Assembly: GCA_035361425.1 (NCBI GenBank)
Contig: DAOSCP010000002.1
Coordinates: forward strand, 65,410-129,409
Length of the DNA stretch: 64,000 bases
Direction: 5' to 3'
DNA from: Ignavibacteriales bacterium
GTDB lineage: Bacteria; Bacteroidota; Ignavibacteria; Ignavibacteriales; DAOSCP01
A program made the position numbers and the translations under genes. Positions 26,820 to 52,500 of this stretch are shown here, piece after piece (the stretch's first letter is position 1; each line of letters begins with the position of its first letter). Under the pieces are notes generated by a model that saw only the letters and a program-made list of their open reading frames with translations, was not told the DNA's origin and made no database searches.

Positions 26820-28385
26820 ATGCTTAGAAAAAAAAACTTTGAAATTAAAATCAAAGATATAAAATGGTTTTTACCTACAGTATATCTCCTTTCAACCTTT
26901 ATTTTGTTGATTATATTTGAAAAATCAATTGATAGATTATTCGGTGAATTTTTTAGAGATATTATATCTTTTGTTATATCTGAAAACGAAGAAATATTAG
27001 TTAATAACCTTGCAAACAATGGAGAAATTGTTCCCGCAATTATAGCAATTGCTTTGACTGTTATTGCAATTGTTGTTGAGTTAGTTGCAAATAAATACTC
27101 ACCTAAAATTGTTGACTTGTTTATAGATGATAGGAAAAATAATTTAATAATAGGTTTTTTTGTTATAGCTTCTCTTAATCAACTTTATGTTTCCAATTCA
27201 ATATCCACTATACATAATAATTATTTTAGTATTTTCGTTTCGATTTTGATGGTAATGTTGGCTGTTATTTTAATAATACCTTATTTCGGTTATGTCTTTA
27301 CGTTTTTGCATCCAACTCATTTTATATTATTAATTAAAGAGAGGGCTATAAGATCTTTTAGGGATATTAATAAAACAAATTATATGGAGAAAAAAAATGA
27401 ATTTCATTATTATATAGATTTTTTAGGTGATATTGCTATAAATTCGTCTGAACAGAGTGATAGGTTTACAACCTTAGAGTGTATTAATTCATTAACTGAT
27501 ATATTAATTAATTATCAATCATATAAAAAATTATTACCAAATCATTGGTATTTAATATCACCAATTGAGAAAAACGATCCTGATTTTACTGACTTATCTC
27601 CTTTTGTTATGCAAAACATTGAAAAGAATAAAAATTGGTTAGAACGCAAGGTATTTAAATTATATGAGCTTTTATTCAGTAATACACATACAACACAAAA
27701 AGATATTGCTTCTGGTATATTAAGTAATCTTCAAAAGTTTGCAAAAGTATGTATTGAAAATAAAAATTTAGTTATATTAGATACAATAATGACAATGTTA
27801 AATACACTATTAAGAATTTCGCTTAATGCACATTTCCCAAGATCTGCTTTCAATATACTTGAGCACTATAGAGTTATTGGTGAATATTTAATTGTACATT
27901 ATCCACAAAAAATTGAAGAGCTTGCTAAATACATAAAATACTATGCACAAGAATCTAATAAACTTGGTGTTTATTTTATTATGGAAACAGCTGCCCACGA
28001 TTTATATATGTTGAATAAAGTTGCTTATGAGTATAATATCCCAAATATTAATAAATTACTAGATATTTTCTTATCTCTTGATGAACAAGTTGAAGAAGGT
28101 AGAGAAAAAGAAGAGCAAAGGTTAATTGGTGTTAGAATTGCTCAAACAAAGTTAGCGGCTTTTTATTTATTTAATAATAGGTCTGATTTAGCAGATAGGA
28201 TCTATAAAGATATGAAAACTGAACCTTTATCAAGAATTGAAAAAATTAAATTATTAATTCTTGCTACTACCGATCATGAATATTATGAATTTACTGGCCG
28301 GGGAATTAATTTCTATTTTATTGAAGAAGATTATAAACCCTACTTAATGGAATTCTTTACATGGTTTGAATTTAATTATGATTAA
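26820..28385 (+). CDS. Multi-pass membrane protein, DUF2254-like (tentative)
   Basis: Several N-terminal TM helices. The segment LTVIAIVVELVANKYSPKIVDLFIDD resembles the DUF2254 'S-x-x-x-SPR' region. A large soluble C-terminal part follows. The family assignment is from memory only. Confidence 0.4.
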   Translation: MLRKKNFEIKIKDIKWFLPTVYLLSTFILLIIFEKSIDRLFGEFFRDIISFVISENEEILVNNLANNGEIVPAIIAIALTVIAIVVELVANKYSPKIVDLFIDDRKNNLIIGFFVIASLNQLYVSNSISTIHNNYFSIFVSILMVMLAVILIIPYFGYVFTFLHPTHFILLIKERAIRSFRDINKTNYMEKKNEFHYYIDFLGDIAINSSEQSDRFTTLECINSLTDILINYQSYKKLLPNHWYLISPIEKNDPDFTDLSPFVMQNIEKNKNWLERKVFKLYELLFSNTHTTQKDIASGILSNLQKFAKVCIENKNLVILDTIMTMLNTLLRISLNAHFPRSAFNILEHYRVIGEYLIVHYPQKIEELAKYIKYYAQESNKLGVYFIMETAAHDLYMLNKVAYEYNIPNINKLLDIFLSLDEQVEEGREKEEQRLIGVRIAQTKLAAFYLFNNRSDLADRIYKDMKTEPLSRIEKIKLLILATTDHEYYEFTGRGINFYFIEEDYKPYLMEFFTWFEFNYD

Positions 28386-30239: not shown

Positions 30240-30253
30240 TTGTATGTTATCAG

Positions 30254-35043: not shown

Positions 35044-35559
35044 ATGACAGAAAACAAACCAAACCAACCAAAGACAGCTTTTGGAAGATTTATGGTTCAT
35101 TATTTTATTCCAAATTTTGCTAATAATGTTCAAGGTCTAGTTTATTTTGGTGCGGCATTTCTTGTAATTATTATTGGTTTAAGAGGTTTAGGAACTGTAG
35201 CTGGAAAGATATCTATTGTACCTAAATTTTTATTAGCGTATGATGCTGAATTAGAAGGTATGGCTATATCTCCAAATTGGGTAATGGTTGCTTTATTTAT
35301 TGAATTTTTCCTACTTTTATTAATGGCAATAACAGTATTTTTTACACCCGAAGAACCACATTTACATGCAGATCATAATCAACATAAATCAACTTCAGAA
35401 AAAACAATAACTGTTGATGAAGAGTTTGAACAAATAGCTGAAAAAGTAAGAGAAAAAATTAGAATGGTAGCACAAGAAGAATTGCAATTAATGGATGCTT
35501 ATTTAGAAAAAGTTCATAAACAACATGCAGAAACATTACAGAAATTAACACAAAAATAA
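35044..35559 (+). CDS. Small two-TM inner-membrane protein with an intramembrane Glu and a coiled-coil tail; GldL/PorL-like (hypothesis)
   Basis: The ORF itself is solid (AGGAG RBS, 171 aa). TM1 is LVYFGAAFLVIIIGLRGLG. TM2 is VMVALFIEFFLLLLMAITVFF followed by TPEEP, echoing my recollection of GldL (GMGAAVVIVGALFK..., TM2 with a conserved Glu ending ...FEP). The confidence value refers to the family call, not to the existence of the gene. Confidence 0.35.
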   Translation: MTENKPNQPKTAFGRFMVHYFIPNFANNVQGLVYFGAAFLVIIIGLRGLGTVAGKISIVPKFLLAYDAELEGMAISPNWVMVALFIEFFLLLLMAITVFFTPEEPHLHADHNQHKSTSEKTITVDEEFEQIAEKVREKIRMVAQEELQLMDAYLEKVHKQHAETLQKLTQK

Positions 35560-35575: not shown

Positions 35576-36166
35576 ATGGCTAAAGCAAATGTGTATTTTG
35601 TTATGTATCTTGTACTACTTTCTGAATTGATAACTATAATAACAGAAAGGGATATATTAACAAAACATGAAATAAAAGTAAAAAAGAAACTTATTGAAAG
35701 TATCGGAAATTCTTATAAGAATCCGGTATTTGTGAATGCACAGCAGGGAGTAACCTGGGTTATTGGGTCTGAAACTCCTGCTGATGTAATAATTAATAAT
35801 GTTGGTTTAGTTTCCGATCAAGAAAAGAAAAATGTTAAATATACTGTAGATGTTGATGGAAATGCACCAGCTGGTTGGCAAGGTCCATTAACTAATAATG
35901 AAAAAAAAGGAAATTTTGAGTTAGTTTTTATTCCTCAAAAGGGAGATGCGGAATTCAAAGGTAATTTTACATCAGAAGGTAAGTATAAGTTTAAGGTAAC
36001 TATGGAAGTAGAGAGAGTGCTTCCAGATTATTTAATAGGAAAAACCAAAACCGAATTAGAAAAAATAGTTGCGGATAAAAAGTTCCAAAAAGCAACCACT
36101 ACTTTTTCGGTTGATGTCTTCAAGAAAAATACAGGAGTTCAAAAGCAAGGAGCTATTTTTTACTAA
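35576..36166 (+). CDS. Bitopic membrane protein (N-terminal TM + one beta-rich domain); truncated GldM/PorM-like (hypothesis)
   Basis: 196 aa. The N-terminus NVYFVMYLVLLSELITIITERD resembles the GldM TM region (...MINLMYLVF...). The rest looks like a single Ig-like domain, whereas GldM has ~500 aa. The confidence value refers to the family call. Confidence 0.3.
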   Translation: MAKANVYFVMYLVLLSELITIITERDILTKHEIKVKKKLIESIGNSYKNPVFVNAQQGVTWVIGSETPADVIINNVGLVSDQEKKNVKYTVDVDGNAPAGWQGPLTNNEKKGNFELVFIPQKGDAEFKGNFTSEGKYKFKVTMEVERVLPDYLIGKTKTELEKIVADKKFQKATTTFSVDVFKKNTGVQKQGAIFY

Positions 36167-36175: not shown

Positions 36176-36210
36176 AAAAAAGCTCTCATTAAACAAGAGA
36201 GCTTTTTTTA
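36176..36210 (+). terminator. Rho-independent terminator
   Basis: AAAAAGCTCTC-ATTAAACAA-GAGAGCTTTTTTT, starting 10 nt after the stop codon at 36164-36166. A ~160-nt AT-rich gap follows. Confidence 0.75.
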
Positions 36211-36369: not shown

Positions 36370-37473
36370 ATGATACGAAAAATATTATCAATGTTATTTA
36401 TAACTTTTTTTGTTCTTTATGGTCAATCTGATAAAATAAAAGAAACAATCAGAACAGTGACAAATTTAAATATTACATTACCAAGTGAAGGTGCAGAAAT
36501 AGCTGGTAACCAGCTTAGTGTAATTAAATATGAAATCGAGTTATTAGATGAAAATTTCAAACCATTAAAGAAAAATGATTTTGGTGAATTTAAAATTATT
36601 AGAAAACCTGATGACCAAGAATTTAAAAAATTAACTCAAGGTGGTAGAGGTACAATAGTATTTGGATATATTAAAGCAAAATTTTATAAACCAGGTAATT
36701 ATATTATTAAAACAAGTTATAGTGGAAAAGGTGAAATAGGAGTTGCATCTGTTGATAGATATTATAAAGTAATTGTTAATTATCCAACTTTTGCATCTGC
36801 TAAAACATTGGATTCAATTTATTACATTGGTGAAAAAGGATTGTTTAGTATTGCAGTAAATGAATTTAATGATGCTTCTTTATATAGTTATAAAGTATAT
36901 GAAATTGATAAGAATGGCACAAAAATTGAATTATTTTCAGATAATAAACCACTAGTTGATTTAGGAAAAATAATTCAACTTAATTATTTGAATAAGACTA
37001 TACAAATTGAAGGATTTTACGATAATAGAGTATATGAATTTTACGATATTGATGGTCAAATAAAAAAATCAGTTTGGCAAACAGAAATATTACCCATAGA
37101 TGCACTTGTGGAATTTAATAACTGGGCTGCAAGTGATGAGGAGTATTGTGTACTGGATGTTGCTACTAATACTTTATTTAATCCATTGACATTCTATTAT
37201 TTATACGCACAGAGCAAAGATGTAAATTTTATAGCTCTTACTCCAGAATGTAATGATTTAGTAGTTGAAGCAACACCTAATAATTTTTTAGCTGGTGAGC
37301 CTGAAGTTTCTCAAAGCGGTGCATTTTTATCAATAAGGTTAAATATTAATCCAAAATTTGTAACAGGTATAGGTAGCCAAAGAGCACAATTAGTTTCATT
37401 AAATTTTAATTTTAGAACTCAGTTTGGGGAAGTAAGTAGAACATATAAAGCAAAGGTTTTTAAGTCTAAATAA
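36370..37473 (+). CDS. Secreted hypothetical protein (signal peptide; beta-rich)
   Basis: AGGAG RBS and signal peptide MIRKILSMLFITFFVLYG|QSDK. I recognise no family. It is the first gene after the terminator and promoter gap. Confidence 0.6.
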   Translation: MIRKILSMLFITFFVLYGQSDKIKETIRTVTNLNITLPSEGAEIAGNQLSVIKYEIELLDENFKPLKKNDFGEFKIIRKPDDQEFKKLTQGGRGTIVFGYIKAKFYKPGNYIIKTSYSGKGEIGVASVDRYYKVIVNYPTFASAKTLDSIYYIGEKGLFSIAVNEFNDASLYSYKVYEIDKNGTKIELFSDNKPLVDLGKIIQLNYLNKTIQIEGFYDNRVYEFYDIDGQIKKSVWQTEILPIDALVEFNNWAASDEEYCVLDVATNTLFNPLTFYYLYAQSKDVNFIALTPECNDLVVEATPNNFLAGEPEVSQSGAFLSIRLNINPKFVTGIGSQRAQLVSLNFNFRTQFGEVSRTYKAKVFKSK

Positions 37474-37474
37474 T

Positions 37475-39130
37475 ATGAAAAATATCATTAAATACATAGT
37501 TTTAGTAATTATTTTTAATAGTTTATATGGTCAAGGTAATAATATTGATTACCTTGACTTAATGAATTTTAAATTTATTAATGAGTATAGAAAAGAAATC
37601 AATTATTTAAATGTGTATTTTGTTGAATTTAAAGATACTTTAGCAGGAATAAAATATCTTGCAAGAGAGGATGGTTCTAGACTAATCTTAAAAAAATCTA
37701 AAGATACTGTAAAAACATACCAGATATATTATATAAAAAATGGTGTAGGATTAGAGCCGATTACTCCAATTTATATATCAATGTTTGCGACATATCAAGC
37801 ACCAAAAACAGGACAAAGTCGTCAACTTATTGGTTCTGCAAAAAAAACAGAACGAGCAAAAGTAGATACTTTTATAGTGTATAATCCTAATGACTTTTTA
37901 TATCTTAAGAATTCTAGTAATAAGACAAATAAAGATAATTATAGTGTAATTCTTAATTATATTAATGAACAAATAAATCCTTCAAAATTATTAAAAAAAG
38001 GTGCACCTCAGAAAAAAGAAAAGCAATTATTAAATCTTCCATTAAATTATAGTAATAATATGATGTTTCAAGCATATGTATCGCCTGATAATGCTGATCA
38101 ATTAAATAATATTATTACTAATGGATATCATAAACTAATTAGTTATGATAGAATTACAACAAATTTGCAGGCAAATAATGAAGAAAATCAAGAAATAGAT
38201 ACTGCAAATGTTTCTTCGAGTAATGAATGGTTAGATTTCTTTAAAATAGTATATTCAGATTTATCATTTTCAAAACAAACTATTTGTATTAATGGTATAA
38301 GTAATTTATTTAGTTTGGGAATAGCAAAAGTGGGATTTGAAAGTAGTTTTGATGATAGAGTTTTAAGTTATCTACCTATGGAAGCACCATATCATCATTA
38401 TGGCGTTAATATGTTTTTTAATATGACGGGCAATTTAGAAGATGTGCAAAAAAGTTTTTTTGGTAATGTTAGGTTATTAATAAGGCATAGATATAATTCT
38501 GCAAATAATTTCTATTGGTTACCAATATTTGAAGTTAAACAACCAAAATTGAATGTAAATACAGGTTTTACAGTTGAAGGAGAATTCAGCAAAGGGTTTA
38601 TATCAAATATAATGAAAAATTTGCCGGTATTTACATTTTATTATTCAGTTGGTGCATCTAAAATGCCAAAACCTTATTACCAAATTTATGATACCGGTTC
38701 TGTATTTCCAAGATATTATTACAATAGAAATCAGTGGGAATATGGAATGTCGTTTTTCTGGAATACAACTCAAAGCTCACATTATAGATTGGATTTAGGT
38801 GTTGGAGGTTACGATATATATAAATTTGAATATTTCCTTGATACAACTGATATACCTGTTATTTTGAGTACTTCAAGTAGAAAAAATTTTGTACAACCTT
38901 ATATAGCATTAACATATGATGCAATTCCTAATAAAGCAATATTGGGATACAAATTTAAATATTTTGATAGTAGGTTTTCAGTTAAATTATGGACAAGATT
39001 ATTTGAATTATTGGGTTCTGATGTTAGAATAGAAGCTTATATAATAACAAAACCTTTCTACAGAAGTATTTATCAATGGGAAAGTCCAGGTGGATCATTT
39101 GTACAATTAAGGTATAGATATGCATTTTAA
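37475..39130 (+). CDS. Putative outer-membrane beta-barrel protein (hypothetical)
   Basis: Signal peptide ...FNSLYG|QGNN. The sequence is rich in Y/F/N/G with alternating hydrophobicity. The C-terminus ...VQLRYRYAF ends in Phe, the OMP/BAM signature. It starts 1 nt after the previous stop. Confidence 0.5.
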   Translation: MKNIIKYIVLVIIFNSLYGQGNNIDYLDLMNFKFINEYRKEINYLNVYFVEFKDTLAGIKYLAREDGSRLILKKSKDTVKTYQIYYIKNGVGLEPITPIYISMFATYQAPKTGQSRQLIGSAKKTERAKVDTFIVYNPNDFLYLKNSSNKTNKDNYSVILNYINEQINPSKLLKKGAPQKKEKQLLNLPLNYSNNMMFQAYVSPDNADQLNNIITNGYHKLISYDRITTNLQANNEENQEIDTANVSSSNEWLDFFKIVYSDLSFSKQTICINGISNLFSLGIAKVGFESSFDDRVLSYLPMEAPYHHYGVNMFFNMTGNLEDVQKSFFGNVRLLIRHRYNSANNFYWLPIFEVKQPKLNVNTGFTVEGEFSKGFISNIMKNLPVFTFYYSVGASKMPKPYYQIYDTGSVFPRYYYNRNQWEYGMSFFWNTTQSSHYRLDLGVGGYDIYKFEYFLDTTDIPVILSTSSRKNFVQPYIALTYDAIPNKAILGYKFKYFDSRFSVKLWTRLFELLGSDVRIEAYIITKPFYRSIYQWESPGGSFVQLRYRYAF

Positions 39131-40562
39131 GTTCTACATATTAAAGAGTTATCTTATTTTATTATTATTGTTTGATTTTGCTTATTCGCAAAGTGATTAT
39201 GAAAAACAAGCTATTTATAAAAGAATTTATGAAAATTTAGAGTATAGAACGGATGGTTTTAATGATTTGAAAAAGCAATGGTATCTTAATGAACCTATGA
39301 TTATAAGACAGATTTATAATAACTTAGTTTTAAATGGATTTTTATTACATAACGGACATCCAATAACAAATGAAGATACATTAAAACTTTTTTCTAATAA
39401 ATTTTATAATTCAAGGGTTTTGGTAAAATTACGTCAAAGATATTATGATGATGAAATAGAAAGAATGGAATTTATATTAGAAAATGAAAACCCAGGAATA
39501 GATACTGCTAGATTTATCGATCCTATTAAAGACTGGGTTTTAGTTAGAGAGGCAGTTGGGGATTCTTTATATGAGGTATTAAAAAAGAAAAAATATACTT
39601 ACACAAATTTAACAAAGGATTATTTTCAACATTATAATTTATACTTTTACGATTTGTATTTTTCGGCAATTAATCCATCGTTAATGTTTTGGGCAAGTAC
39701 GTCTGAGGCAAATACTCAATTTGATAGTGAAAGTCCATTTAATAAGTTTAATAGAGCAGATAAATATACGATGTCTTTTTTTGGGAAATGGGGAGTAGAT
39801 CAACTTTCTAAACCTGGGTGGTATTTTTCCGATTATATAGTAGGGTTAAAAATCCTTCATTTGGATATGTTGGTTAATGATCCTGATGATTTTGAATATG
39901 GGCTATATTTAGGCTTTAATTTCGGTGTAAAAGATGTTTTAGTTGAAAATTCATCATTTTTTAAACCTCGTAGAATTGATAGTAAAACCAGTAATATGTA
40001 CATAAAGGCTGCATTTAATCCTTTTACATTGCTTGGTTACGATTGGAGATATTTTAATTTAGGAGTTGAATCTTTCTATAATATAAAGGATAAACCTGTA
40101 ACTGAAGATGATATTAAAATATTACAAGAAACAGGTGCAGATTATATTTATTCACATACAATTAAAAACTTTACCACAATATATGCACAGCAAAAATATT
40201 TAACGGATGTTCTTGGTTTAGGTTATTTATTTTTAGGTATGGGGATAACATTCCATAATTATTCTTTACTGACAGCTACTGTTGATGATTCTGAATTTCA
40301 AGTTTTTGAAAATACTAAATATACAGTTCCAAGTTTTGAAATAGGATTGACTAAAAGTGGGGGGCTAATTTATAGTGAAACAATTTTTCAGTTGAATTAT
40401 AATAGTAAAGCTAAATTTGGTTTTTGGGGTATAAAATTACATATGCTAATTAGAAATAGTATTGGGTTTGATATTAAATATTTTAAGGGTTTTAGAAATG
40501 TTCCAGGTTGGCACCAAGATTCGTATTTTGTTATTAGTCCAATCATCAGGATCAATTTTTAG
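39120..40562 (+). CDS. Putative outer-membrane beta-barrel protein (hypothetical, second)
   Basis: Signal peptide ...LFDFAYS|QSDY and C-terminus ...SPIIRINF, with a terminal Phe. It overlaps the previous gene by 11 nt and ends 8 nt before the giant ORF. Confidence 0.5.
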   Translation: MHFKFYILKSYLILLLLFDFAYSQSDYEKQAIYKRIYENLEYRTDGFNDLKKQWYLNEPMIIRQIYNNLVLNGFLLHNGHPITNEDTLKLFSNKFYNSRVLVKLRQRYYDDEIERMEFILENENPGIDTARFIDPIKDWVLVREAVGDSLYEVLKKKKYTYTNLTKDYFQHYNLYFYDLYFSAINPSLMFWASTSEANTQFDSESPFNKFNRADKYTMSFFGKWGVDQLSKPGWYFSDYIVGLKILHLDMLVNDPDDFEYGLYLGFNFGVKDVLVENSSFFKPRRIDSKTSNMYIKAAFNPFTLLGYDWRYFNLGVESFYNIKDKPVTEDDIKILQETGADYIYSHTIKNFTTIYAQQKYLTDVLGLGYLFLGMGITFHNYSLLTATVDDSEFQVFENTKYTVPSFEIGLTKSGGLIYSETIFQLNYNSKAKFGFWGIKLHMLIRNSIGFDIKYFKGFRNVPGWHQDSYFVISPIIRINF

Positions 40563-40570: not shown

Positions 40571-43500
40571 ATGTTAACAAATTATAAACAATTTTGGGTA
40601 TATTTATTATTTATATTGTTTGTAAGTAGTACAAATGTTTACTCACAAACAATATCAATATCAAGTCCAGTTGCAAATGATACATTAAATTATGGAAGTA
40701 GCAAAACAATTACCTGGAATTGGACGGGTGCAAATGGTACTGCTAAAATAGAATATTCAACAAATAGTGGTACAAGTTGGATAAATATAAATTCCAATGT
40801 TACTAACAATAACGGTAGCAATACATATAATTGGAGTGTTCCTAACAATCCTTCCAATAATTGTAGAATAAGAATCACTAGTATTGATTATCCTGCAATA
40901 TCGCAAACCTCTGGTTTGTTTGTAATTAGAAGTTTGGTATTGTTATCACCATCATCTGGAAATCATATCCAAGCAGGAAAGACTTTTAATATTCAATGGA
41001 CAAGTTCGTATGTATCATCACTGAGATTAGAATATTCAACTGATAATGGTAATAATTGGAATTTGATACAAACTGGAGTAAATCCAACAGCTTCACCATA
41101 TGTATGGAATGTTCCGGATATAGTTTCAGATCAGGCGATAGTAAGAGTAAGCGACGCAACAAAGTCAATAACAAATACAAATTGTATTAAATCCCAAAGT
41201 GGAAGTTTTTATATTTGTAAATTAAGATTATTAGCACCTAATGGTGGTGAATTTTTATTTTCCAATTCAAATTATAATATACAATGGACCGCATCTAATA
41301 ATGTTTCTTTTGTAAATTTGGAGTATTCAACAGATAACGGTGGCAATTGGTATACTATTGCAAATAATTTGTCAGCATCAAGTGGGTCATATACATGGAT
41401 GGTAACAAATAATACATCAAATAATCAAGCATTAATAAGAGTATCAGATGCGAGTTATCCAAATTATGTTAATGATATTTCAGATAATAATTTTACAATT
41501 GGTAGATTACTAGTAACATCACCAAATGGAGGATTAGCCGCTGGATATTTGTCTGGTAGTACAATAACAATTACATGGTCTTCACAAAATATTTCTTTGG
41601 TAAATATTTATTATACTATTGATGGAACTTCTTATACTCCCATTGTTACAAATTATGATGCTACAAATGGCTTTTATAATTGGACTATTCCAGCTGGAAT
41701 TAATACAAATAAATTTAAAATAAAAATTGAAGATGCAAGTAATTCATCAAGATATGATGAGTCTGATTATTACTCTGTTATAAGCACAATTTCATTGAGT
41801 TCTATCTCAGCTAATATCCAAACAGGGAAAACCATAACATTAAATTGGGCAGCTGGTTCTTATTTATCCAATGTTAATATTTCATATTCAACAGATAATG
41901 GTAATTCATTCCCATACACAATAGCAACTAATATAAGTGCATCAACCGGTACTTATAATTGGGTAGTGCCGTCAGGAATTACAGGAGATAATTGTAAAAT
42001 TAAAATAACGTCAACACAATATCCTGATATTTATGCAATTAGTAATACATTTAAAATTGCAGAGTTGAATTTAACTTATCCCTTAGGAACAGATGGTTGG
42101 ATAGCAGGGGGTACTTATACTATAATGTGGAACAAATCGACAAATGTGGCAAATGTAAAAGTATATATATCTACTAATAATGGTAATACATGGGGTTCAC
42201 CACTTACAACGACATCATCCAATAGTTATGTATATACTGTTAATTCCGGCTTTGATTTTAATCAGTTTAAGGTAAAAGTTGAAGATGCTACTACAACAGA
42301 TATTTATTCTGAGACACCAATAGGATTTAAAGTCGGAAAGATAAATATTCTAAGTCCATCAACATCTGGAGAAGTATGGAATAGTGGAACGGTTAAAACA
42401 ATTTCATGGACCGCTACTACATTTATAAATATTGTTAGGCTTGAATATTCAACAAACGGTGGATTAGATTGGACTTTTATAGCAAATGTTGGAGCTACAG
42501 TTGGTAGTTATAATTGGACAGTTCCAAGTGTTTCATCCAATAACTGTGTTATAAGAATAAGTGACTCAGATGTGCCGACAATATTTGCTACATCTAATAC
42601 ATTTTCGATAGGAAATCTTATTGTAACATATCCAGACGGTGGAGAAGGATTAAATGCAAATTCTAATGTGAATATTCAATGGACGGCAAACGGAATAGCA
42701 AATGTTAATATTTATTATAGTTTAAATAATGGTGCAAATTGGATTAAAATTGCTTCAAATATTAATGCAGCAAGTGGAAGTTATACGTGGCTATTACCTG
42801 ATGTTGTTTCATCGCAATGCTTAGTTAGAGTAAGCGACGCTAATGATACCACTTATTATGATAATAGCAATGGAGCTTTTCGAATTGGTAAAATTTCTAT
42901 TATTCAACCAACAACGAATAAAATAAATCAAGGTAGTGTATATACTATTAAATGGAACGCAACATCCAATATTTCAAATGTTAATATATACTATTCAGAA
43001 AATAATGGTGCAAGCTGGAATTTAATTCAGAATAATGTTAATGCATCTTTAGGGCAGTATAATTGGAATGTACCATTTACAACAACAAGCCAAGGTAAAA
43101 TCAGAATTGAAGATGCACAAACAAATTCGCTAATTACTGCTACAAATAGTGGTAATTTTTCCATTTCATATATTACAGTAAATACTCCTAATGGAGGAGA
43201 AAATTGGTTTTCTACAAGTACACAAAATATTACGTGGACATCGAGTGCTGATGTAAGTAATGTTAAAATTTATGTATCGACTGATGGTGTTACATTTGGT
43301 TCAACGCCAATTTACAACGGACCAAATACAGGTAGTTATTCATGGGTTGTAGATGGAAATTATATTTCTACTACTGCAAGAATAAAAATTGTTGATGCAA
43401 GTGCTTCTAATGTATCTGACTCTTCTAATAATGTTTTTACAATAACACCACTACAATTAACAGCTCCCAACAATCCAATCACTTTGTATCAAGGGCAAAG

Positions 43501-46500
43501 TTATAATATCACATATGATTATGATGCAACAAAAGTAAGTAGCGTCAAAATTGAATTCTCATCTACTGGAGGTAATAGCTGGACCAATATTGTTGCTTCT
43601 ATACCAGCAACAGGAGTTTATAATTGGACAGTTCCAGCTGTTACGACAAATAATGGTTTAATACGTATTACTTCAAATGATAATCCAGCATTTTATGATG
43701 TAAGTGATAATACATTTTCAATTAATACAATATCATTGACCAGTCCTAACGGTAACGAAAATTGGATGGCAGGAACAACGAAAAATATTACTTGGGTTAA
43801 TATTCCAGGAGTAAGTGCATTAAATTTGTATTATTCTTTAGATGGGGGTAATAGCTGGAGATTATTTAAAACAGGAATAAATGCTGGTGCACAAACATAC
43901 AGCTGGGTTGTTCCTGATTCAGCATCAAATATGGTTAGAATAAAAATTGCAGCTTCTGATAATCCTGCAATATCAGATATAAGTGATAATAATTTTACGA
44001 TAAGTTCATTAACATTATTATCACCTTTAGGTGGTGAAAAACTATTAGCAGGACAACAACATTATATTACATGGGATGCACAATATATTCAAAGTGTAAA
44101 AATAGAATTAACTACAAATGGTGGATCAACCTGGATATCTCCAGAAATAGCAACCGGTGTACCAGGAGCTAATGGTACTTATTTGTGGACTATACCAAAT
44201 AATCCAACAACACAAGCAAGAATTAGAATAACAAGTGATAATCCCAATGACAATACTATTACGAAAACTTCACCTGCTAATTTTACAATAAGTAGGTTAC
44301 AAATAACAAATCCTATTTCTACTACTGCATTTCAGGAAGGGCAAACTGCCACCATTCAATGGACTGCGGATAATATTGATTTTGTTAATATAGATATTAG
44401 TACAAATGGTGGTATAGAGTGGAATAACATTGCAACAGGTTATCCAGCATTAGGAGGAAGCTATAACTGGACAGTTCCAATAAATTATTCATCAAATAAT
44501 TGCATTATAAGGATATATGATCAATCAAATTTTGTAAGAATTGCAACATCGCAAACATTTAATATATCTAAGCTAAATATAACATCACCTACCACAAGTG
44601 ATAAATGGTTTATAGGAAGCACTAAAAAAATACAATGGCAAAGTACCAATGTTAGCTTAGTTAATATTTTATATAGTACAGATGGTGGTGCTACCTGGCC
44701 AATTACAATTGCTTCCAATTATCCAGCAAACGCTGGCTATTATGATTGGCAGGTATCAGGATTAGTAACAACACAGGGTAGAATTAGAATAGTTAGTGTT
44801 GATAAACCTTCGATAACTGCTACAACTGGAAATTTCCAAACTTCAAGTTTAAATATTACACAACCAGCAGGAAATGAAAGCTGGCAAGTTGGGACAAATA
44901 AGAGTATAAATTGGACTTATGGGAATATAACAAGTGTTTATTTATATTATTCTACTGACGGAAGTAATTGGTTACAAATTGGTGCTGGTCCAATTAATGC
45001 TGCATTGCAAACTTATAATTGGACTATTCCAGATATATCAAGCAATACCGTAAGAATTAAAATTGCGGATGCAGCTGATACTTCAAGAAACGCTGTATCT
45101 AATCCATTTAAAATTGGCAAAATTACAGTTTTATATCCTAATGGTAATGAGATTCTTCAATCTGGCAAAACAATTAATATAACCTGGAATAATTATTCAA
45201 GTATATCTAATGTTAAAATAGAATATTCAACAAATGCTGGAGGTTCTTGGAATACGATAGTAAATTCTGTCCAGGCAAATTTAGGAGCATATCCATGGGT
45301 GATACCAAACACAACTGGAAACTCTTATAGAATAAGAATATCAGATGCAGATTCTCCAAGTCCAACAGAATTCATTAATGACATTTCCGATAACAATTTT
45401 ACAGTAAAGAGAATAGATCTAATTTCACCTGTAAGCGGAGAATATTTCCAAATAGGAAAGACCAAACAAATATCATGGAATGTTGGTAATATTGCAACAT
45501 TAAGAATTGATTTATCAACAAATGGTGGCTCCGATTTCTTTAATATAGCTGAAATATCTGGAGCAAATACAAGTTATAATTTAAAACTAACTAATCCAGC
45601 ATATGTATCAACAGCTTGTTATTTAAGAATTTATGATAAAGATAATCCTACAATTGTTTCAGAATTATCAAGTCCATTTACAATCAAAAGACTTGATTTA
45701 ATTTCACCTAATGGAGGTGAGATAAAACAAGCAGGTGTTGTAGATACAATAAAATGGCAAGCAAGTGGAGTAAGTAATATTACTTTACAATATTCAACAG
45801 ATGGGGGATTAAATTTCTCCAATTCTATAGTTAATAATCATCCAGCTAATTTGGGTTATTATTATTGGACAATTCCAAGTAATTTATATGGAAATAATAT
45901 AAAAGTAAGAATTGTTGATTATGATGTTTCCAGTATTTCTGATACAAGTGACAATAATTTTTCAATATCACAATTAGCAATTACTCAACCTACATCAACA
46001 TCTAAATTCAATGTCGGTTTGCCTTTGATAGTTAATTGGAGTGCTAATAATTTAACTCAAATTAATATAGATTTATCTACTGATGGCGGTCTATCCTATC
46101 CTTATAATATAGTAAGTAATTATAATGCAACTTTAAATACTTGTACTTGGGTAATTCCATTAACTTTAACACCATCAAGCAACTGTGTTATCAAGATTAC
46201 AGATGCTAATAATCCTACAACATATATTTTAAGTCAACAATTTTCTATAGCTAAACTTAAAATTTTAGTTCCAAATGATGGTACTCAAAATTGGCAAACA
46301 GTTACTCAACAAACAATAACCTGGCAAGCCTCGTCAAATGTATCAAATATTAGAATTGAATATACTTCAAATAATGGAGTTTCATGGAATACAATTATAA
46401 ATTCCGTACCAGCTACTACTGGTAATTATTTGTGGACAATACCAAATACAGCTGCTTCTAATTTAGTTAAAATTCGAATAACGGATGTTTCCAATAATAA

Positions 46501-49500
46501 TGTAATAGACTCAAGTGATAATAATTTTAATATAAGAAGATTAGATTTAACATCGCCAAATGGTGGGGAAAGCTTTGCTGCTGGTTCATCTCAACAGATT
46601 AGTTGGATAGCTAATAACGTTAATAATGTAAAAATAGAATATCAAACTTCAAATGGTGGTACTTGGACTCATATAGCTACTGTGCCAGCAAATTCTTCTC
46701 CATATACATGGACTGTTCCTGCAACAACATCTAGTGAATATAGAATTAGAATCTCAGACGCAACTTATTCTACTATACAATCTCAAAGTGCAAATACATT
46801 TAAAGTAGGTCAAATAACTGTTACAAGACCAAATACTGCTGAAACATTTCAGGTGGGAAAAACACTTCCTATTAGATGGAATGCATCTTCGAATATTAAT
46901 TTTGTAAATATTGCATTTTCTACAGATAATGGTACTACCTGGTATTATATAGCTAATAATGTTTCTGCAAGTGCAGGTGCATATAATTGGACAATATTGA
47001 ATAAACCTTCAAATAATTGTTTGATAAGAATTACTGATGCAAGTACAGATACAACTGTTAGTGGACATATTAGAGATATAAGTGATGTAGCATTTTCTGT
47101 CAAATACCTAAAGCTCAACATTCCAAATGGTGGTGAAACCTGGAAAATTGGTAGTAATCAAAATATAACATGGGAAACAAGTTCGAATATTTCAAATATT
47201 CATATTTACTTATCAACGAATAGTGGTAATAGTTGGGGTATTACATTAGGCAATAATGTTGGTGCAGGTGCTGGTTCATTTTTGTGGAGTAATATAGGAA
47301 ATTATCCATATTCAACTTGTAAAGTAAAAATTATTGATGCATCAAACAATTCAATTTCTGATAGTAGTGATAATGCTTTCAAGATAGGTAATATTTCTAT
47401 AATTGAACCTGTAGCACTTGCTAATTACAAAACAAACTCACCAATGGTTATTAAATGGACAAGTACATCTAATATTAATACTGTAAATATATATTATTCA
47501 GCAGATGGTGTTAGCTGGAACCAACAAATAGCTTCTAATTTACCAAGCACTACTGGCACTAATGAATTTACCTGGGTTACTCCTTTAACAGCAACAAATA
47601 CAGCAAAAATAAAAATTGTTGATGCGGAAAGTGGTTCAACTATTGAAGAAATATCTTCAACATTTAGAATTACTGACCTAAATATAATATCACCTGTATC
47701 AACTGATAAATGGCAAGTTGGGACATCTAAAAATATAATTTGGAGTGGACAGGGTGTTTCAAATGTAAATATATCTATACTCGATAATAGTAATATTTCG
47801 TACTCTATTGCAACAAATACAAATTTAACAACTTATAACTGGTCTATACCAGATATACCATTTTTCCAAGCACCGTCTTATCGTATTGTTGTAACAGATG
47901 CTTCAAACCCAGATAATTCTGATACAAGTGAAATATTTACAATATGTAAAGTAAAAGTAGATTCACCTAATGGAGGTGAAAATATTTATGCCGGCTCAAC
48001 ATATACAATAAATTGGACTACATATAATGTTACAAATGTAAAGATTGAATATTCCAGCAATAATGGTACTTCGTGGAATACAATAGTTGGAAATATAGCT
48101 TCAAATAATGGAAGTAATTCATATAATTGGCTTGTTCCAAATGATACATCATCAAATTACCGAATTAGAGTGAGTGATTTTTCAAACTCAACAATAAATG
48201 ATATCTCTGATAATAGATTTACAGTTTCAAAAATTACAGTTTTATCACCAAATGGTGGTGAAAATTGGCAAATTGGAACAACCAAAACTATTACATGGCG
48301 TTCAAATGGAATTTCTCAAGTAAATATCTATTTAAATTACGGAGCAGGTAATTTTACAATTGCAACTAATGTTTCATCTGTTGGCGGAAGTGGTTCATAT
48401 AATTGGGCAATCCCAGATAATCCATTATTATATACAACAAACGCAAAAATTATTATATCAAGTAGTACAGATCCAACTAAAGCTGATACAAGTGATAATG
48501 TATTTACAATTAGTAAGTTAGTAGTTATTTCACCAAATGGTAGTGAAAATTGGTTTAAAAATTCTATAAGCACTATAAGTTGGGAAAGTAGAAATATAAG
48601 CTCTGTAAAAATTGAATATAGCACCGATAATGGTATAAATTGGAAAAATATTGCAACAGTTACAAGCGTAAACGGTATAAATAATTATAATTGGTTAGTA
48701 CCTGCTGATACTTCACTGAATTGTATAGTAAGAATATCAAATGCTACAAATTCTACAATTTATGATGTATCGGATAATAAATTTAATATATTGGGATTAT
48801 TCATTACACAACCTATTGCAAATGCAAAATGGCGTAATGGATTATTAAAAACAATTTCATGGCGTGCAAATTATTCAACAAATGTCAACATATATATATT
48901 AACACCTACAGGTAAAAGTTTAATAGCAAGTAATGTTACAGGTAATAGTTGGGGTGGTAATTATACATGGTCTATATTAGATTCAAATAAATATTATACT
49001 AATAGCAATAGAATAATAATTGAAGATTTTGGAGATCCTTCAAGGTGTGATACAACTAATTATTCATTTTCAATTTCTAAACTTCAAATTACAACACCAA
49101 ATACAAATGTAAATTGGTTTGCTGGAAGTAGTAAGATTATAAGTTGGGTATCTCAAAATATTAGTAATGTTGTAATCGAATATTCTTCAAATAATGGCGG
49201 AAGTTGGAGTACAATAACAACTACAACATCAAATAATGGTACTAATAATTATTCATGGACTGTTCCTTCTACAGCAAGTTCACAATGTTTAATAAGAATT
49301 AAAGATGTAGCAGATGGTAATTTACTATCAGATACATCAAACACAACATTTACAATATCAAATTTACAATTGTTGTCGCCATTAAGCAATGCTAGATGGC
49401 AAATGGGAAAAGTAAACACAATTCAGTGGACTGCAAGTAATATAGCCAATGTAAAAATTGAATATTATGATATTGCAACAGCTAATTGGTTGACGATTGC

Positions 49501-52500
49501 AACAGTTTCAGCTTCGTCTGGTGCTTATAACTGGTTGATACCAGCTTTAGGATTAACTCCAAGCGATCAATATAAAATAAGAATATCTGCTGCTGACGAT
49601 CCAACAAAAATGGTTGAATCTGGATTATTTACAATTGGAAATGTACAACTTTCAAACTTTAATGGTGGTGAAGTTGTTCAGGCTGGAAAAGTTGTAACAA
49701 TAAATTGGACAAAAACAAGTTTTGTTAACACTGTTAATTTAAAATATACTACAAATAATGGCACAGATTGGAATACAATTGCGAGTGGTATATCTATAAC
49801 ATCTTATAATTGGAATATACCTAATATTTCATCTAATAATGTTAAAATTTTAGTTGAAGATGCTGTAGCAAATTCACTAATTAAAGATACATCTGATGCA
49901 GTATTTACTATTGCAAGATTAGTTGTAAATGTTCCTAATAATGGTGAAGTTTATCGTGAAGGTACTAAGATAAATATAACCTGGACAGCACAAAATACTA
50001 ATAATTTACGATTAGAATATTCAATTGACCACAGTAATTCATGGAATATAATAGCAAATTCTGTTAATCCAGCTTCTGGTTCATATACATGGACACTTCC
50101 ATACGGCCTTGTTAGTAAATATTTAACAATTAAAGCTTATGATGTTTCTTATCCAACAATAATGGATACAACAGATAATAAAGTTACCGTTGCAAAATTG
50201 TTAATTACAAATCCTGCTGGTGGGGAAACATGGGTTGCTAATGATACTAAGTCGATTTCATGGAATAGTCAATACATACCAGCTTCTACATATACAATCG
50301 AGTATACTACAGATAACGGTGTCAATTGGCAAACAATTGTAACAAATGTTCCGACATCAAATAATAATTATAATTGGGTATTACCATCAACTGCTTTATC
50401 TAATGTAAAAATAAGAATCAGACATAATGATAACTCTAATTTATCTGACACTCTTGATGGAACATTTACAATTGTAGCACCTAAGATTACAGTTACTCAA
50501 CCAAATGGTGGAGAAATTTTACTTAAGGATCAACCATACACAATACAATATACTCGAACACCAGATATTACAAATGTTAATATTTATTCAAGATTAGAAG
50601 GTAAAAAAGGCTGGAGATTATTAGCTGGCAATACTACAGCATTATCTTATAATTGGACTCCAGATACAGCTGGTAACTATAAAATAATAATTGTTGATTT
50701 TAATAATCCTAATGTTGTAGGTGATTCATCAGATGCATTTTGTACTGTTAAACATATACAGGTTACACAGCCTGCAGGTGGTGAAATTTGGCAAGCTGGC
50801 AAACCTTATCAAATAAAATGGGTTACTTCAAATAATATAAATACTGTTCGAATAGAATACTCTACAAATGCAGGTGGTAGCTGGCTACCTATAACTTCAA
50901 GTATTCCAGCAGCTGATCAACAATATAATTGGACAATACCTTATGCATTAGATGGAAAACAAGTTCATATTAAAGTTAGTGATGAATTAGCTAGTTCTGT
51001 TATATATGATATTTCTGATGGTTTTGCTACGATTTCTAATTTGCAAGTTGTATATCCCAATAGTAATACTGACGGTTTAGTAGAAGGTAAATCCTATAAT
51101 ATACAGTGGACTAATTCACCTTCAATTACAAACATTGATATATACTATACAGCAGATGGTGGACCACTTCAAACAATACAGGCAAATGTTCCTGCAGCGG
51201 GAGGACAATATAATTGGACTGTTCCAGTAATTAATTCAGATAATGTGAAGATTGTAATAAAAGATGCATCAAATCCGTTGATTGTTGATAGTTCCGATAA
51301 TGCTTTCAAAGTAGCTTCATTGATGGTTGTTACACCGAATGGAGGAGAAGATTTTAGAATAGGTAGAAATGCAACAATAACATGGTCTAATTCTTCCAAT
51401 ATTTCTGCAGTTAATATTTATTATTCGTTGAATAATGGTACAACCTGGTTTATTGCTGGAGTAAATGTTCCTTCAACAAATTCTGTTAACAATTATACAT
51501 GGAAAGTTCCAAATGTTTTAAGTACTACCAATGCATTAATTAAAATTATTGATGCATCAAATTCTAATATTGAAGATATAGGTGATGCAAACTTTACTAT
51601 AAGTAATCTTGTTGTAACATCTCCTAATGGAGGTGAAAGAATATCTGCAGGTAAAAAATATAATATTACATGGATAGCACAAAATGTTACAACAAACTTA
51701 AGAATTCAATATACACTCAATGGCACTAATTGGCAAGATATAGCAACCGTTCCAGGTACAACAACAAATTATGAATGGAATGTAGCTGCTGATACATCAA
51801 CAGTTAATGCAAAAATAAGGATAATGGATCCTACATTAACAGAGGGTGATACAAGTGATGCTAATTTTACAATTGGCTACATTAAAATATTAAATCCTAT
51901 TGCAGGGAATGTATATCAAACAAATAGAAATATTCAAATTTACTGGCAAGATTCTCCAAATATTGGTAGTGTAAATATCAAGTATCAAGTTGGTACATCT
52001 GTACCTGTAACAATTGTAAGTAATTACGCTTCTCCAACTAATTTATATAATTGGACTGTACCGTTAGATTTAGCACATAATAATCTTAACTTAATAATTT
52101 CTGATATTAACGCAGATGTAACTTTAGCAGATACGATAAAAATCAACACTGTAAAATTACAGTTAACTTCCTTAAATGGTGGGCAAAAAATATTAGCTAA
52201 TAAAGTAACACCTATAACATGGGCAAGTTCAAATTTAACTGGTACAATAAAAATTGAATTATCAACCGATGATGGCTTTAACTGGATAGCTATTCCTGGT
52301 GCAAGTAATGTTTCCGCAGCTGATGGAGTATTTAATTGGTTAGTCAATAATATTACTACCGGGCAAAATAGAATTAGAATTATTAGCAATAATGATAATT
52401 CTATAAGAGACTCTAGTGCATCATTCTTTATTATATCAAGATTGAAAGTAACTGATCCAACATCAATTGCAAATTATAAAGCCGGGACAACTCAAAATCT

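Follow-up and report, generated by a model that had tools for sequence, protein, structure and literature searches.

Among the closest described counterparts of the locus considered here is the gliding and secretion machinery of Bacteroidota, in which the GldL/GldM pair (PorL/PorM; PDB 6YS8, 7SAT-7SAZ) forms the proton-driven rotary motor of the T9SS/gliding apparatus. In Flavobacterium johnsoniae, SprF/PorP-like outer-membrane proteins (OMPs) have their genes beside those of SprB and further cargoes with a type B CTD (PMC9143113), and BLAST evidence has been reported for a T9SS in the Ignavibacteriae (PMC5837995). By analogy with the sprC-sprD-sprB-sprF arrangement, an earlier note on the window (the whole 64,000-nucleotide stretch of Ignavibacteriales DNA analysed here) had suggested that three genes upstream of a giant gene, here P1, P2 and P3, encode dedicated components for the giant protein. 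The present analysis places these genes as the outer half of a conserved cassette, U1-U2-P1-(P2-P3)x1-2, which looks like an undescribed trans-envelope machine, widespread in Ignavibacteriales. We give about an even chance to the reading that this cassette spans the envelope as an apparatus for the giant adhesin, a counterpart of GldLM–SprF/SprB by analogy and not by demonstrable homology.

All features described below lie on the forward strand. The coordinates given earlier for P1 (36370..37473, 367 aa), P2 (37475..39130, 551 aa) and P3 (39120..40562, 480 aa) proved exact, as did the spacings of +1, −11 and +8 nt leading to the giant ORF (40571..64000), which extends past the window end. The claimed signal peptides were recovered as N-terminal hydrophobic cores in all three products, and similar cores recur through the families (64/67 P1, 113/116 P2 and 111/118 P3 sequences). 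The giant protein likewise starts with a signal-peptide-like core, and all four products are taken to be Sec-exported; none of the sequences inspected by eye showed a Cys lipobox. The giant, an Ig-like repeat protein carrying Kre9_KNH-like and Reelin-subrepeat-B-like 'SPNGGE...W' repeats, covers 7,810 aa inside the window and reaches 9,120 aa in JGI contigs of 99.98-99.99% identity.

Upstream of P1 lie U1 (35044..35559, 171 aa), the first gene of the cassette, and U2 (35576..36166, 196 aa), always directly 3' of U1 in cassettes. The order U1-U2-P1-P2-P3 is kept in ~64 GTDB species loci and ~50 metagenome loci (U1 itself in 64 and 55, respectively), nearly all of them from Ignavibacteriales, to which the cassette is largely restricted and where it is found, as a single copy, in essentially all sampled species. 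Median intergenic gaps along the cassette are 30, 31, 19 and 2 nt, and cassette proteins from deeply divergent families are only 26-33% identical. Because order and spacing are kept in more than 100 independent loci, the P1-P2-P3 locus is far beyond chance. P2 is always paired with P3, an unrelated protein, and tandem duplication of P2-P3, seen in 44 of 63 loci (~70%), affects them only as a pair; the cassette comprises five to seven genes. In variant cassettes P2/P3 are replaced or missing, which makes U1-U2-P1 the most stable part, and P1 occurs in all cassettes, the variants at L122 and L130 among them. Two claims of the earlier note give way on these grounds: P1-P2-P3 are not by themselves the core of the system, and the functional unit does not start after the terminator, since U1 and U2, upstream of it, belong to the same cassette. 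Additionally, a gene for a DUF2254-family membrane protein is found directly upstream of U1 in ~45 related loci; in the window it lies ~6.6 kb further upstream (26820..28385, 521 aa; Pfam PF10011, E = 3e-13), with a MoxR-DUF58-VWA block and an amylase-family gene inserted, and its membership in the cassette system is uncertain.

The strong terminator previously noted between U2 and P1 (36176..36210) was borne out as an intrinsic-terminator-like hairpin with a 12-bp stem (ΔG −15.1 kcal/mol, z = −5.3; 0 of 200 shuffles folded as stably) and a T-run directly after it; its loop of 9 nt, longer than a simple terminator scan allows (limit of 8), is the sole reason why that scan did not report it. 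Hairpins of differing stem sequence occupy the same gap at loci L005 and L008, none was found in that gap at L003, and the family-wide median of the U2-P1 gap is 31 nt. The terminator splits or attenuates the cassette in the window's clade only, where the P1-P2-P3-giant part would probably be expressed at a level other than that of U1-U2.

The two upstream genes encode an inner-membrane pair. In U1, hydropathy segments place TM helices at ~31-50 and ~79-100, ahead of a cytoplasmic coiled-coil tail, and five residues (R47, E87, A37, G45 and G48) are invariant in 101 of 101 sequences, with Arg47 at the outer end of TMH1 and Glu87 within TMH2. U2 is bitopic, its N-terminal TM helix (~5-23) carrying Y7, F8, Y11, E17 and L18. 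Y7, F8, Y11, L18 and P150 are invariant (99/99; a Y-F..Y motif), and E17 and K/R3 are each kept in 96 of the 99 sequences. After the TM helix come an E-R-D motif and a β-rich periplasmic domain of ~170 aa that is probably Ig-like.

Of the three exported families, P1 is β-rich and probably periplasmic; its C-terminus (...Y.AT.IK, with terminal K/R in 58/67 sequences) lacks an OMP β-signal across the family, and P1 is by this criterion not an OMP. The C-termini reported for the other two products (...RYRYAF and ...IIRINF) are correct and correspond to β-signal-like motifs kept across both families. P2 ends in a conserved OMP-type β-signal, L-R-Y-R-Y-[AG]-[FL] (last residue F in 69, L in 27 and V in 5 of 116 sequences; Y at −5 in 105/116), with an N-terminal ~250 aa of unassigned fold followed by a β-rich C-terminal ~300 aa. 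Nine long strands were modelled at 360-550 by AF2, with a pLDDT of only 31.6, and DCA coevolution gave no signal for P2. It is a probable outer-membrane β-barrel protein, the barrel assignment resting on the β-signal and secondary structure. P3 ends in S-P-[IV]-I-R-I-N-[YF] (last residue Y/F in 114/118, Ile at −3 in 116/118) and consists of an N-terminal α/β domain (~50-156) and a C-terminal β-domain (~170-480). Its AF2 model has a pLDDT of 51.6 overall, with long C-terminal strands whose pLDDT is 55-80; Foldseek returned no significant match for this model, its top weak matches being nearly all outer-membrane barrels. The strongest coevolution ladder in P3 is antiparallel and joins ~172-190 with 468-480, i.e., the first and last strands, and high-scoring ladders were antiparallel in 74 cases vs. 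parallel in 16. Together with the β-signal, the weak AF2 model, the fold matches and this top ladder suggest that P3 forms a closed barrel. The earlier OMP-like claim therefore holds insofar as P2 and P3 look like OMPs by their β-signals, while for P2 the barrel fold is one that we infer.

The suspicion that P1-P3 fall outside the PorP/SprF, PorV, TpsB and autotransporter families was supported by profile searches, which placed them in no other curated family either. Consistent Pfam matches were absent among 58 P1, 67 P2 and 85 P3 members; none of the three matched in NCBIfam or in PDB profile searches. U1 has no Pfam, NCBIfam or PDB relative, and U2 has no PDB relative and only sporadic Ig-like Pfam matches. 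For all five families, searches against Pfam, NCBIfam and PDB sequences gave no match even with 54-85-sequence profiles, and an exhaustive search of 1.84 billion (1.84e9) representative proteins returned only 79 P3 relatives. As judged from these searches, the cassette is built wholly of unannotated protein families.

Such results bear on the possibility, which we consider rather unlikely, that P1-P3 are accessory, anchoring or shuttle parts dedicated to a single, very large cargo of a canonical T9SS, i.e., SprF/PorP-like (and SprC/SprD-like) analogues, the giant using a T9SS CTD via SprA/Sov and U1/U2 being regulatory or incidental. In its favour are the membership of the lineage in the FCB group, the BLAST evidence cited above, PorV and a C25 peptidase in a related MAG, and the position of P3 immediately beside the giant gene. 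Genes for type A CTDs of the T9SS also occur in the fetched loci, and 54 of the giant's 83 long relatives have such a domain. At L003, the place downstream of the cassette is taken by a short giant homologue (673 aa), which carries Por_Secre_tail, the T9SS type A sorting domain (E = 1.7e-8). Against this, 0 of the 85 P3, 67 P2 and 58 P1 sequences match PorP/SprF, PorV or any T9SS model; neither Por_Secre_tail nor CHU_C appears in the precomputed Pfam record of a complete 7,812-aa orthologous giant, whereas unlinked relatives of 2-3 kaa have Por_Secre_tail in theirs; and type A CTD repeat proteins occur without a cassette within one MAG that has the cassette. An inner-membrane pair of its own, with invariant buried charges, would moreover be superfluous for an outer-membrane anchor platform.

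The synteny with giant 'SPNGGE'-repeat genes proposed earlier is frequent but not obligatory, a giant being found at 31 of 57 assessable loci and lacking at 26. The 31 linked giants are directly downstream on the same strand, each with a signal peptide, and all share one repeat type. This adjacency spans Melioribacteraceae and Ignavibacteriaceae, with gaps of 8-60 nt across divergent families, and is kept whether the cassette has one P2-P3 pair or two. Its recurrence between cassettes of such low identity, as well as the short homologue in the same position at L003, argues against the giant being a lineage-specific genomic accident functionally uncoupled from a cassette devoted to general Ignavibacteriales envelope housekeeping, such as a Tol-Pal-like outer-membrane tether or invagination, or lipid/OMP homeostasis. 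That explanation is unlikely in our estimation: homology to TolQRA/TolB/Pal was absent, even though an inner-membrane pair, a periplasmic protein and outer-membrane proteins would fit Tol-Pal logic too, the cassette is single copy and near universal among the sampled species of the order with a giant adjacent in only 31/57, and the conserved upstream neighbour is the DUF2254 gene and no secretion gene. Very improbable is a U1/U2 membrane signalling or anti-sigma-type module beside unrelated surface or periplasmic β-rich proteins P1-P3 (e.g., adhesin-associated and lectin-like), as standalone U1-like proteins in unrelated contexts (L128, L129, L131), the terminator parting U1-U2 from P1-P3 in the window's clade and structure models too poor as proof of barrels are set against five strictly co-linear families in >100 loci, canonical OMP β-signals in P2 and P3, and no DNA-binding, sigma or kinase partner found conserved beside the cassette.

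Under the preferred reading of an apparatus serving the giant, which is presumed to be its client or partner, U1 and U2 would form an ion-conducting, stator-like inner-membrane unit with the same topological logic as GldL and GldM. P1, P2 and P3 would constitute the periplasmic and outer-membrane half of the machinery, in which the U2 periplasmic domain and P1 may reach across the periplasm to an outer-membrane hetero-complex of P2 and P3, and this complex may export, anchor or move the giant adhesin. The sorting domain of the L003 homologue speaks for this reading too, as do the hhalign pairings of U1 with GldL and U2 with GldM given below. Counting against it are the lack of significant homology to GldL or GldM, the small size of U2 relative to GldM, the 26 loci without a giant downstream and the low pLDDT of both barrel models. 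Similar repeat proteins, some with a T9SS CTD and some without one, also occur away from any cassette, and those with T9SS domains do so in genomes that have the cassette.

Compared with T9SS type A cargo (Por_Secre_tail, PF18962), the repeat arrays of the giant are 31-37% identical to many Ignavibacteria/Bacteroidota proteins of 2-3 kaa that end in PF18962, and the L003 homologue has this domain, whereas cassette-linked giants are 3-4 times longer and the sole complete orthologue with a Pfam record (the 7,812-aa protein) shows no such domain there. Tol-Pal, ExbBD-TonB and the Myxococcus Agl-Glt gliding machinery (5:2 stator units with periplasmic and outer-membrane β-barrel partners) likewise combine a multi-TM and a bitopic inner-membrane subunit with buried charges, a periplasmic linker and outer-membrane proteins, Agl-Glt also sharing paired outer-membrane β-barrel paralogues and a surface adhesin. 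However, U1 has only two TM helices where TolQ/ExbB/MotA have 3-4, and the buried acidic residues are Glu in both U1 and U2, in place of the conserved Asp in the single TM helix of TolR/ExbD/MotB; neither group shows homology. As with SprF/SprB, an OMP-like gene adjoins a giant repetitive adhesin gene in an operon-like setting with helper genes (sprC, sprD), but P2/P3 match PF11751/TIGR03519 in 0 of 152 members, lie upstream of the giant gene where SprF-type genes lie downstream, and form an obligate heterologous pair of 460-550 aa with extra N-terminal domains and the inner-membrane pair always present. The sprC-sprD-sprB-sprF comparison remains an analogy. With respect to GldL/GldM, U1 differs in its invariant TMH1 Arg and ~28 aa periplasmic loop, U2 has ~200 aa and one small domain against ~510 aa and four domains in GldM, and P1, P2 and P3 are unrelated to GldK/GldN. 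The alignments by hhalign paired the TMH2-Glu of U1 with that of GldL and the 'MYLV' helix of U2 with the GldM TM helix, and were not significant (P = 0.048 and 0.021; cross-controls 0.13 and 0.09); HMMER profile searches of PDB, which holds 5 GldL and 5+ GldM structures, returned neither family, and neither is among the families listed in per-member Pfam scans of U1 and U2. On these comparisons the cassette is a demonstrable member of none of the known energised trans-envelope systems. It nevertheless resembles GldL in the two TM helices, buried invariant TMH2 Glu and cytoplasmic helical tail of U1, and GldM in the bitopic U2, with its N-terminal TM helix, basic residue near the cytoplasmic helix end and β-rich periplasmic arm. 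The U1 and U2 genes are adjacent as those of GldL and GldM are, with periplasmic and outer-membrane components encoded beside them, and in both cases the host is a bacterium of the FCB group and the system is linked to a giant adhesin with repeats. In the preferred reading the cassette would work like the T9SS/gliding GldLM-to-SprF/SprB axis or other energised trans-envelope systems.

The three signal-peptide genes that precede the giant gene, P1 (36370-37473), P2 (37475-39130) and P3 (39120-40562), all on the forward strand, were found to belong to a larger conserved cassette that also contains two shorter membrane-protein genes, U1 (35044-35559) and U2 (35576-36166). In L003, a distant locus with flanking genes unlike those of the window, five genes stand in a row (151-167, 203, 358, 512-515 and 459 aa), and all five products align with U1, U2, P1, P2 and P3 of the window, the two P3 proteins sharing 33% identity. 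The P3 alignment, run as a pattern against the GTDB species representatives, recovered 67 loci, almost all from Ignavibacteriaceae or Melioribacteraceae and including Melioribacter roseus MAGs, and a scan of metagenomes with the U1 alignment added 56 further loci. Annotation of these loci with HMMs of each of the five families showed U1-U2-P1-P2-P3 in this order in every locus long enough to hold all five genes, with median intergenic gaps of 30, 31, 19 and 2 nt; U1, U2 and P1 each form one cluster, present in 64 non-redundant loci. The earlier note regarded P1-P3 as the core of an accessory system for the giant protein. These three genes do form part of the unit, but the unit comprises five to seven genes, with the two inner-membrane proteins U1 and U2 in its core. 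With about even confidence, the cassette is interpreted here as an envelope-spanning apparatus that in many species is tied to a giant surface adhesin, which would be exported, anchored or moved by it.

Variation between loci was concentrated in P2 and P3: at 44 of 63 loci, a second P2-P3 pair stands in tandem with the first (U1-U2-P1-P2-P3-P2'-P3'). The possibility that P2 and P3 are paralogues of each other was rejected (hhalign probability of 28% over 24 residues). Variant cassettes retain U1-U2-P1 and either carry another OMP-like gene (298 aa) in place of P2/P3 (L122/L123) or have no P2/P3 (L130/L117). Adjoining the L130 cassette on the opposite (reverse) strand is a gene for a 281-aa lipoprotein with an FGE-sulfatase fold (L130 5550-6395), whose best-matching NCBIfam model, GldK/PorK, reached 121 bits where the cutoff is 350; as it was seen at a single locus, this neighbor may be a coincidence. 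Additionally, standalone U1-like proteins of approximately 330 aa were detected (L128 700-1677, L131 1520-2512 and L129 1-837), in which the invariant Arg/Glu pair of U1 is retained and one more TM segment is present at the N-terminus, with no U2, P1, P2 or P3 near their genes; these hint at a wider unannotated membrane-protein family.

Within the window (G+C of approximately 28%), the ORF coordinates first described for P1, P2 and P3 (367, 551 and 480 aa) were matched exactly, and the reported spacings of +1, −11 and +8 nt from P1 through to the giant ORF were correct. Signal-peptide-like N-termini were likewise found in P1, P2, P3 and the giant, the terminal Phe is present in both P2 (RYRYAF) and P3 (IIRINF), and the strong terminator proposed at 36176-36210 was confirmed as a hairpin of −15.1 kcal/mol (z = −5.3, with 0 of 200 shuffles folding as well) followed by a T-run; a generic terminator scan had overlooked it because its loop is 9 nt. 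Located between U2 and P1, the hairpin is restricted to the window clade, being found with differing stem sequences in the window and in the related loci L005 and L008 and being absent from L003. The motif 'ACATTTG' 5' of P1 (36341-36363) is similar to the Bacteroidetes-type −7 promoter box (TAnnTTTG), and the P1 ATG is preceded, at a distance of 6 nt, by a strong AGGAG Shine-Dalgarno-like motif, which together suggest a putative internal promoter after the terminator. The giant ORF starts at 40571 on the forward strand and runs off the window, which ends 3.9 kb ahead of the stop codon; its full product, 9,120 aa, was read from JGI contigs 99.98-99.99% identical to the window, for which the named relatives are Ignavibacteriales MAGs. 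Gln directly follows the predicted signal-peptide cleavage site in P1, P2, P3 and the giant (YG|QS, YG|QG, YS|QS and YS|QT, respectively), and a small residue followed by Gln occupies this site in approximately 85-92% of family members. The Gln in these four proteins agrees with the Bacteroidetes 'Q-rule' (PMC5837995), which is reported not to be valid across the whole FCB group (PMC5837995).

Further upstream, a gene for a DUF2254 membrane protein (26820-28385) was noted, a gene that lies directly 5' of U1 in 45 loci; in the window it is parted from U1 by a MoxR-DUF58-VWA-VWA block and a CBM48/α-amylase-family gene. The former is a Bat-like operon (28397-32981) that, in the window clade only, has been inserted after the DUF2254 gene and ahead of the cassette, and it encodes a MoxR-type AAA ATPase (28397-29380), a DUF58 protein (29370-30239), a 276-aa ORF, and two VWA-domain proteins (31081-32067 and 32064-32981). 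The latter (32995-35031) encodes a 678-aa signal-peptide protein with a CBM48 and an α-amylase catalytic domain of the pullulanase/isoamylase-like type; it ends 12 nt 5' of U1, and a transcript shared with U1-U2 is probable in the window clade; the cassette of other loci does not include it. Directly upstream of the DUF2254 gene lies a chemotaxis-like signaling cluster (16965-26817) consisting of an MCP, a CheA-CheW fusion (Hpt, H-kinase_dim, HATPase, CheW), an MCP with HAMP arrays, a hybrid histidine kinase with receiver and Hpt domains, and a stand-alone receiver. Genes still further upstream encode a 1,137-aa SF1 helicase (AAA_11/AAA_12) and an AAA_35 ATPase on the forward strand (within 8491-13651), and, on the reverse strand, a tRNA-Lys(CTT) (14263-14336) followed by a UDP-GlcNAc 2-epimerase and a DegT-family aminotransferase (within 14263-16716).

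The possible lack of a family for P1-P3 was borne out in Pfam, NCBIfam and the PDB, and it extended to U1 and U2. The five window proteins had no match beyond noise in Pfam or NCBIfam at E <= 1, and per-member Pfam scans (54 U1, 64 U2, 58 P1, 67 P2 and 85 P3 sequences) returned no recurrent family and no GldL, GldM, PorP/SprF, PorV, Omp85 or autotransporter match; profile searches of all PDB sequences with deep alignments of the five families found nothing meaningful. For PorP/SprF (PF11751, TIGR03519), neither window P2 nor P3 matched at E <= 1, and the family was absent at E <= 0.1 among the 85 P3 and 67 P2 members. PorV/LptO (PF19572) matched neither P1, P2, P3 nor any family member, and the same resources recognized a true PorV in L136. 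Omp85/TpsB (POTRA, PF01103/PF03865) and the autotransporter β-domain gave no Pfam or NCBIfam match. Judged by sequence, the cassette falls outside every family against which it was compared. The P3 family is compact with sharp limits: when its profile was run exhaustively with HMMER against 1.84 billion representative proteins, only 79 matched at E <= 1e-3, 72 of them at E <= 1e-10. A literature search found nothing on the cassette genes and only general statements on Por domains or the T9SS in Ignavibacteriae. Overall, these five co-inherited families, spread across much of an order abundant in digesters, sediments and hot springs, are without annotation, solved relative or literature.

The properties of the individual families point to cassette products in both membranes. 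P2 ends in F, L or V in 101 of 116 members with Tyr at −5 in 105 of 116, and P3 ends in Y or F in 114 of 118, with Ile at −3 (116/118) and a hydrophobic residue at −5 (117/118). P2 and P3 combine a predicted Sec signal with C-termini that read as canonical OMP β-signals. The exported, β-rich P1 lacks an OMP signal, its family ending in K/R. AlphaFold2 modeling from 5-sequence MSAs was poor for P2 (pLDDT 31.6) and gave a low-confidence P3 model (overall pLDDT 51.6), in which the N-terminal α/β domain scored pLDDT 65-79 and the long strands of the C-terminal part 55-80. Foldseek searches with this P3 model had no match below E = 0.02, and the weak top matches were almost all outer-membrane barrels (EspP, Pla/OmpT, CdiB, TonB-dependent receptors), those to CdiB and EspP having TM-scores of 0.2-0.36. 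A home-made mean-field DCA was mostly noise (P3, 191 sequences, Meff 119; P2, Meff 81, with no usable signal). The strongest P3 coupling was 178-477, an Asp-Arg pair swapping to Asn-Lys, and the best antiparallel ladder paired residues ~172-190 with the C-terminal strand 468-480 and so linked the first and last strands, as expected if a barrel spanning ~170-480 closed there; antiparallel ladders exceeded the parallel control at a strict threshold (74 vs. 16) and not at a loose one (117 vs. 120). An amphipathic-strand profile was dropped as barrel evidence since it fails to tell barrels from β-sandwiches.

By hydropathy, U1 has two hydrophobic segments (~31-50 and ~79-100), and its residues A37, G45, R47, G48 and E87 are invariant in 101 of 101 sequences, variant and standalone forms included; its C-terminal tail matched only coiled-coil/helical-bundle proteins when a 54-sequence profile was run against the PDB. 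U2 has one N-terminal TM helix in which Y7, F8, Y11 and L18 are invariant (99/99), with E17 and K/R3 each present in 96 of 99, and an E-R-D motif at the membrane exit precedes a β-rich domain of ~170 aa with sporadic Ig-like matches.

The linkage to giant repeat genes was evaluated across 57 loci with room to judge. It had been asked whether homologs of P1-P3 always neighbor such genes: a large same-strand ORF directly follows the last P3 in 31 of the 57, whereas the remaining 26 have unrelated genes there. The 31 ORFs range from 600 to >3,300 aa, mostly truncated by the 10-kb flank, and all carry a signal peptide and the same 'SPNGGE...W' Ig-like repeats. The C-terminus of the giant falls beyond the window and beyond every locus flank. 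A search for homologs of the giant returned only proteins of <=2,911 aa, and an exact 68-mer scan of metagenome contigs for its C-terminus gave 0 matches. The 2,266-aa giant of L019 was rejected as a complete protein because its contig breaks off within a repeat. Repeats related to those of the giant are common among Ignavibacteria and Bacteroidota, and a CTD model developed here, for which 12 positives and 8 negatives of a precomputed Pfam list served as validation, placed a type A T9SS C-terminal sorting domain at the end of 54 of 83 relatives longer than 1,500 aa. Six complete repeat proteins, three with a CTD (P0013, P0014, P0021) and three without (P0017, P0022, P0023), do not lie beside a cassette, and one of the six shares a MAG with a cassette-linked giant. 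In L136, a MAG labeled Bacteroidota with an unlinked giant relative, a C25 peptidase (PorU-like) was found beside the recognized PorV (19740-24874); canonical T9SS attachment-complex genes are thus detectable there by the same tools.

For the cassette-linked giants themselves, the evidence that they are T9SS cargo is mixed. At L003/L004 the giant's position is held by a 673-aa homolog with a canonical Por_Secre_tail (E = 1.7e-8), whereas the record of the 7,812-aa ortholog, the only complete cassette-linked one with a Pfam record, lists no Por_Secre_tail (PF18962/TIGR04183) and no CHU_C or type B CTD (PF13585), the latter being the cargo domain expected beside PorP/SprF genes. The L003/L004 homolog would suit, and the 7,812-aa record would not suggest, a cassette of accessory components dedicated to the canonical T9SS, an explanation we consider unlikely. 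After the L003 homolog stands a gene for a 267-aa signal-peptide protein (L003 13427-14230) with a weak cohesin-domain match (E = 6e-5), and a ~278-aa family occupies this position in 4 loci. Alternatively, the cassette could be a general envelope system, its adjacency to giant genes being incidental; the 26 loci with unrelated genes would fit this and the 31 with a same-strand giant gene would fit it poorly, and it is judged about as unlikely. A signaling module plus unrelated surface proteins, given the single order in which the five families are inherited, is highly improbable.

The preferred interpretation of an envelope-spanning apparatus draws on the co-inheritance, order and spacing of the genes, the TM topology and invariant residues of U1 and U2, the β-signals of P2 and P3, and the frequent giant-gene adjacency. 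In such an apparatus, the products would assemble into one complex: the invariant buried Arg/Glu/Glu of the U1/U2 inner-membrane unit suggest ion-coupled conformational work that would energize it, the U2 domain and P1 would form the periplasmic link, P2 and P3 would act as a hetero-pair in the outer membrane, and the giant would be the client. Such a combination, in which invariant Arg/Glu lie buried in an inner-membrane pair that is accompanied by a periplasmic protein and an obligate OMP-like pair, is the signature of an energized envelope-spanning machine, and physical linkage connects it here with some of the largest genes of the host genomes (up to 9,120 codons). The earlier idea of an accessory system thus stands in its absence of family and its linkage to giant repeat genes, but not in its three-gene extent, U1 and U2 being in the core. 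As a less likely possibility, the cassette may specify a hitherto unrecognized trans-envelope machine of Ignavibacteriota that is complete in itself, in effect a new system for secretion or surface motility that moves and/or exports multi-thousand-residue adhesins without a canonical T9SS. It would then have its own ion-driven stator (U1/U2), possibly an independent or extremely diverged relative of the 5:2 motors, with P1 as periplasmic adaptor and P2-P3 as heteromeric outer-membrane pair, and independence from the T9SS would make it a new route for giant adhesins. Melioribacter roseus is cultured, and MAGs assigned to it (L051, L053) carry the cassette followed by a giant gene, so that a direct experimental test is feasible; additionally, deep MSAs of the cassette families now exist for structure prediction, with about 100 sequences each for U1 and U2, about 70 for P1, about 140 for P2 and about 190 for P3.

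Among known systems, U1 has the GldL-type layout of two TM helices, an invariant protonatable Glu in TMH2 (E87, 101/101) and a cytoplasmic helical C-terminal tail. By eye, U1 also resembles GldL in 'Y.GAA....[KR]' in TMH1 and the Glu in TMH2, and U2 resembles GldM in '(V/L)MYLV' in the TM helix and a basic residue eight positions before Tyr, the K3 (94/99) or R3 (2/99) of U2 having a spacing from the conserved Tyr equivalent to that of the GldM Arg. Homology suspected on this basis was rejected, as four tests gave nothing significant, and therefore it is not claimed. U1 had no NCBIfam or Pfam match to GldL/PorL (TIGR03513), and its 54-sequence profile had no match at E <= 10 in the PDB, which holds five GldL/PorL chains. 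Window U2 had no Pfam or NCBIfam match to GldM/PorM (TIGR03517, PF12081/PF12080) at E <= 1, GldM was absent from the scan of 64 U2 members, and the U2 profile search of the PDB was also without a match; the HMMER profiles for U1/U2 were built both from 4 sequences and from 54/64 sequences. Using five GldL/PorL and several GldM/PorM sequences recovered from the PDB, hhalign against alignments of their N-termini aligned the expected helices, with P = 0.048 (probability 1%) for U1-GldL and P = 0.021 (2%) for U2-GldM from deep profiles (cross-controls, 0.13/0.09) and P = 0.17 and 0.03 from shallow profiles, which is not significant. The likeness is one of topology and chemistry, not demonstrated homology. 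The two systems also differ in reach: GldM has a four-domain periplasmic arm of ~480 aa, whereas the ~170-aa periplasmic part of U2 is too short to span the periplasm alone. If the cassette corresponds, by divergence or by convergence, to the GldLM-SprB gliding/T9SS axis, that biology would extend beyond Bacteroidota, and the cassette would offer a minimal comparison for motor-outer membrane coupling because U2 has ~200 aa vs. ~510 aa in GldM. Overall, the cassette behaves like a variant among the energized trans-envelope systems that serve surface adhesins, with GldLM-SprF/SprB as the closest analogy.
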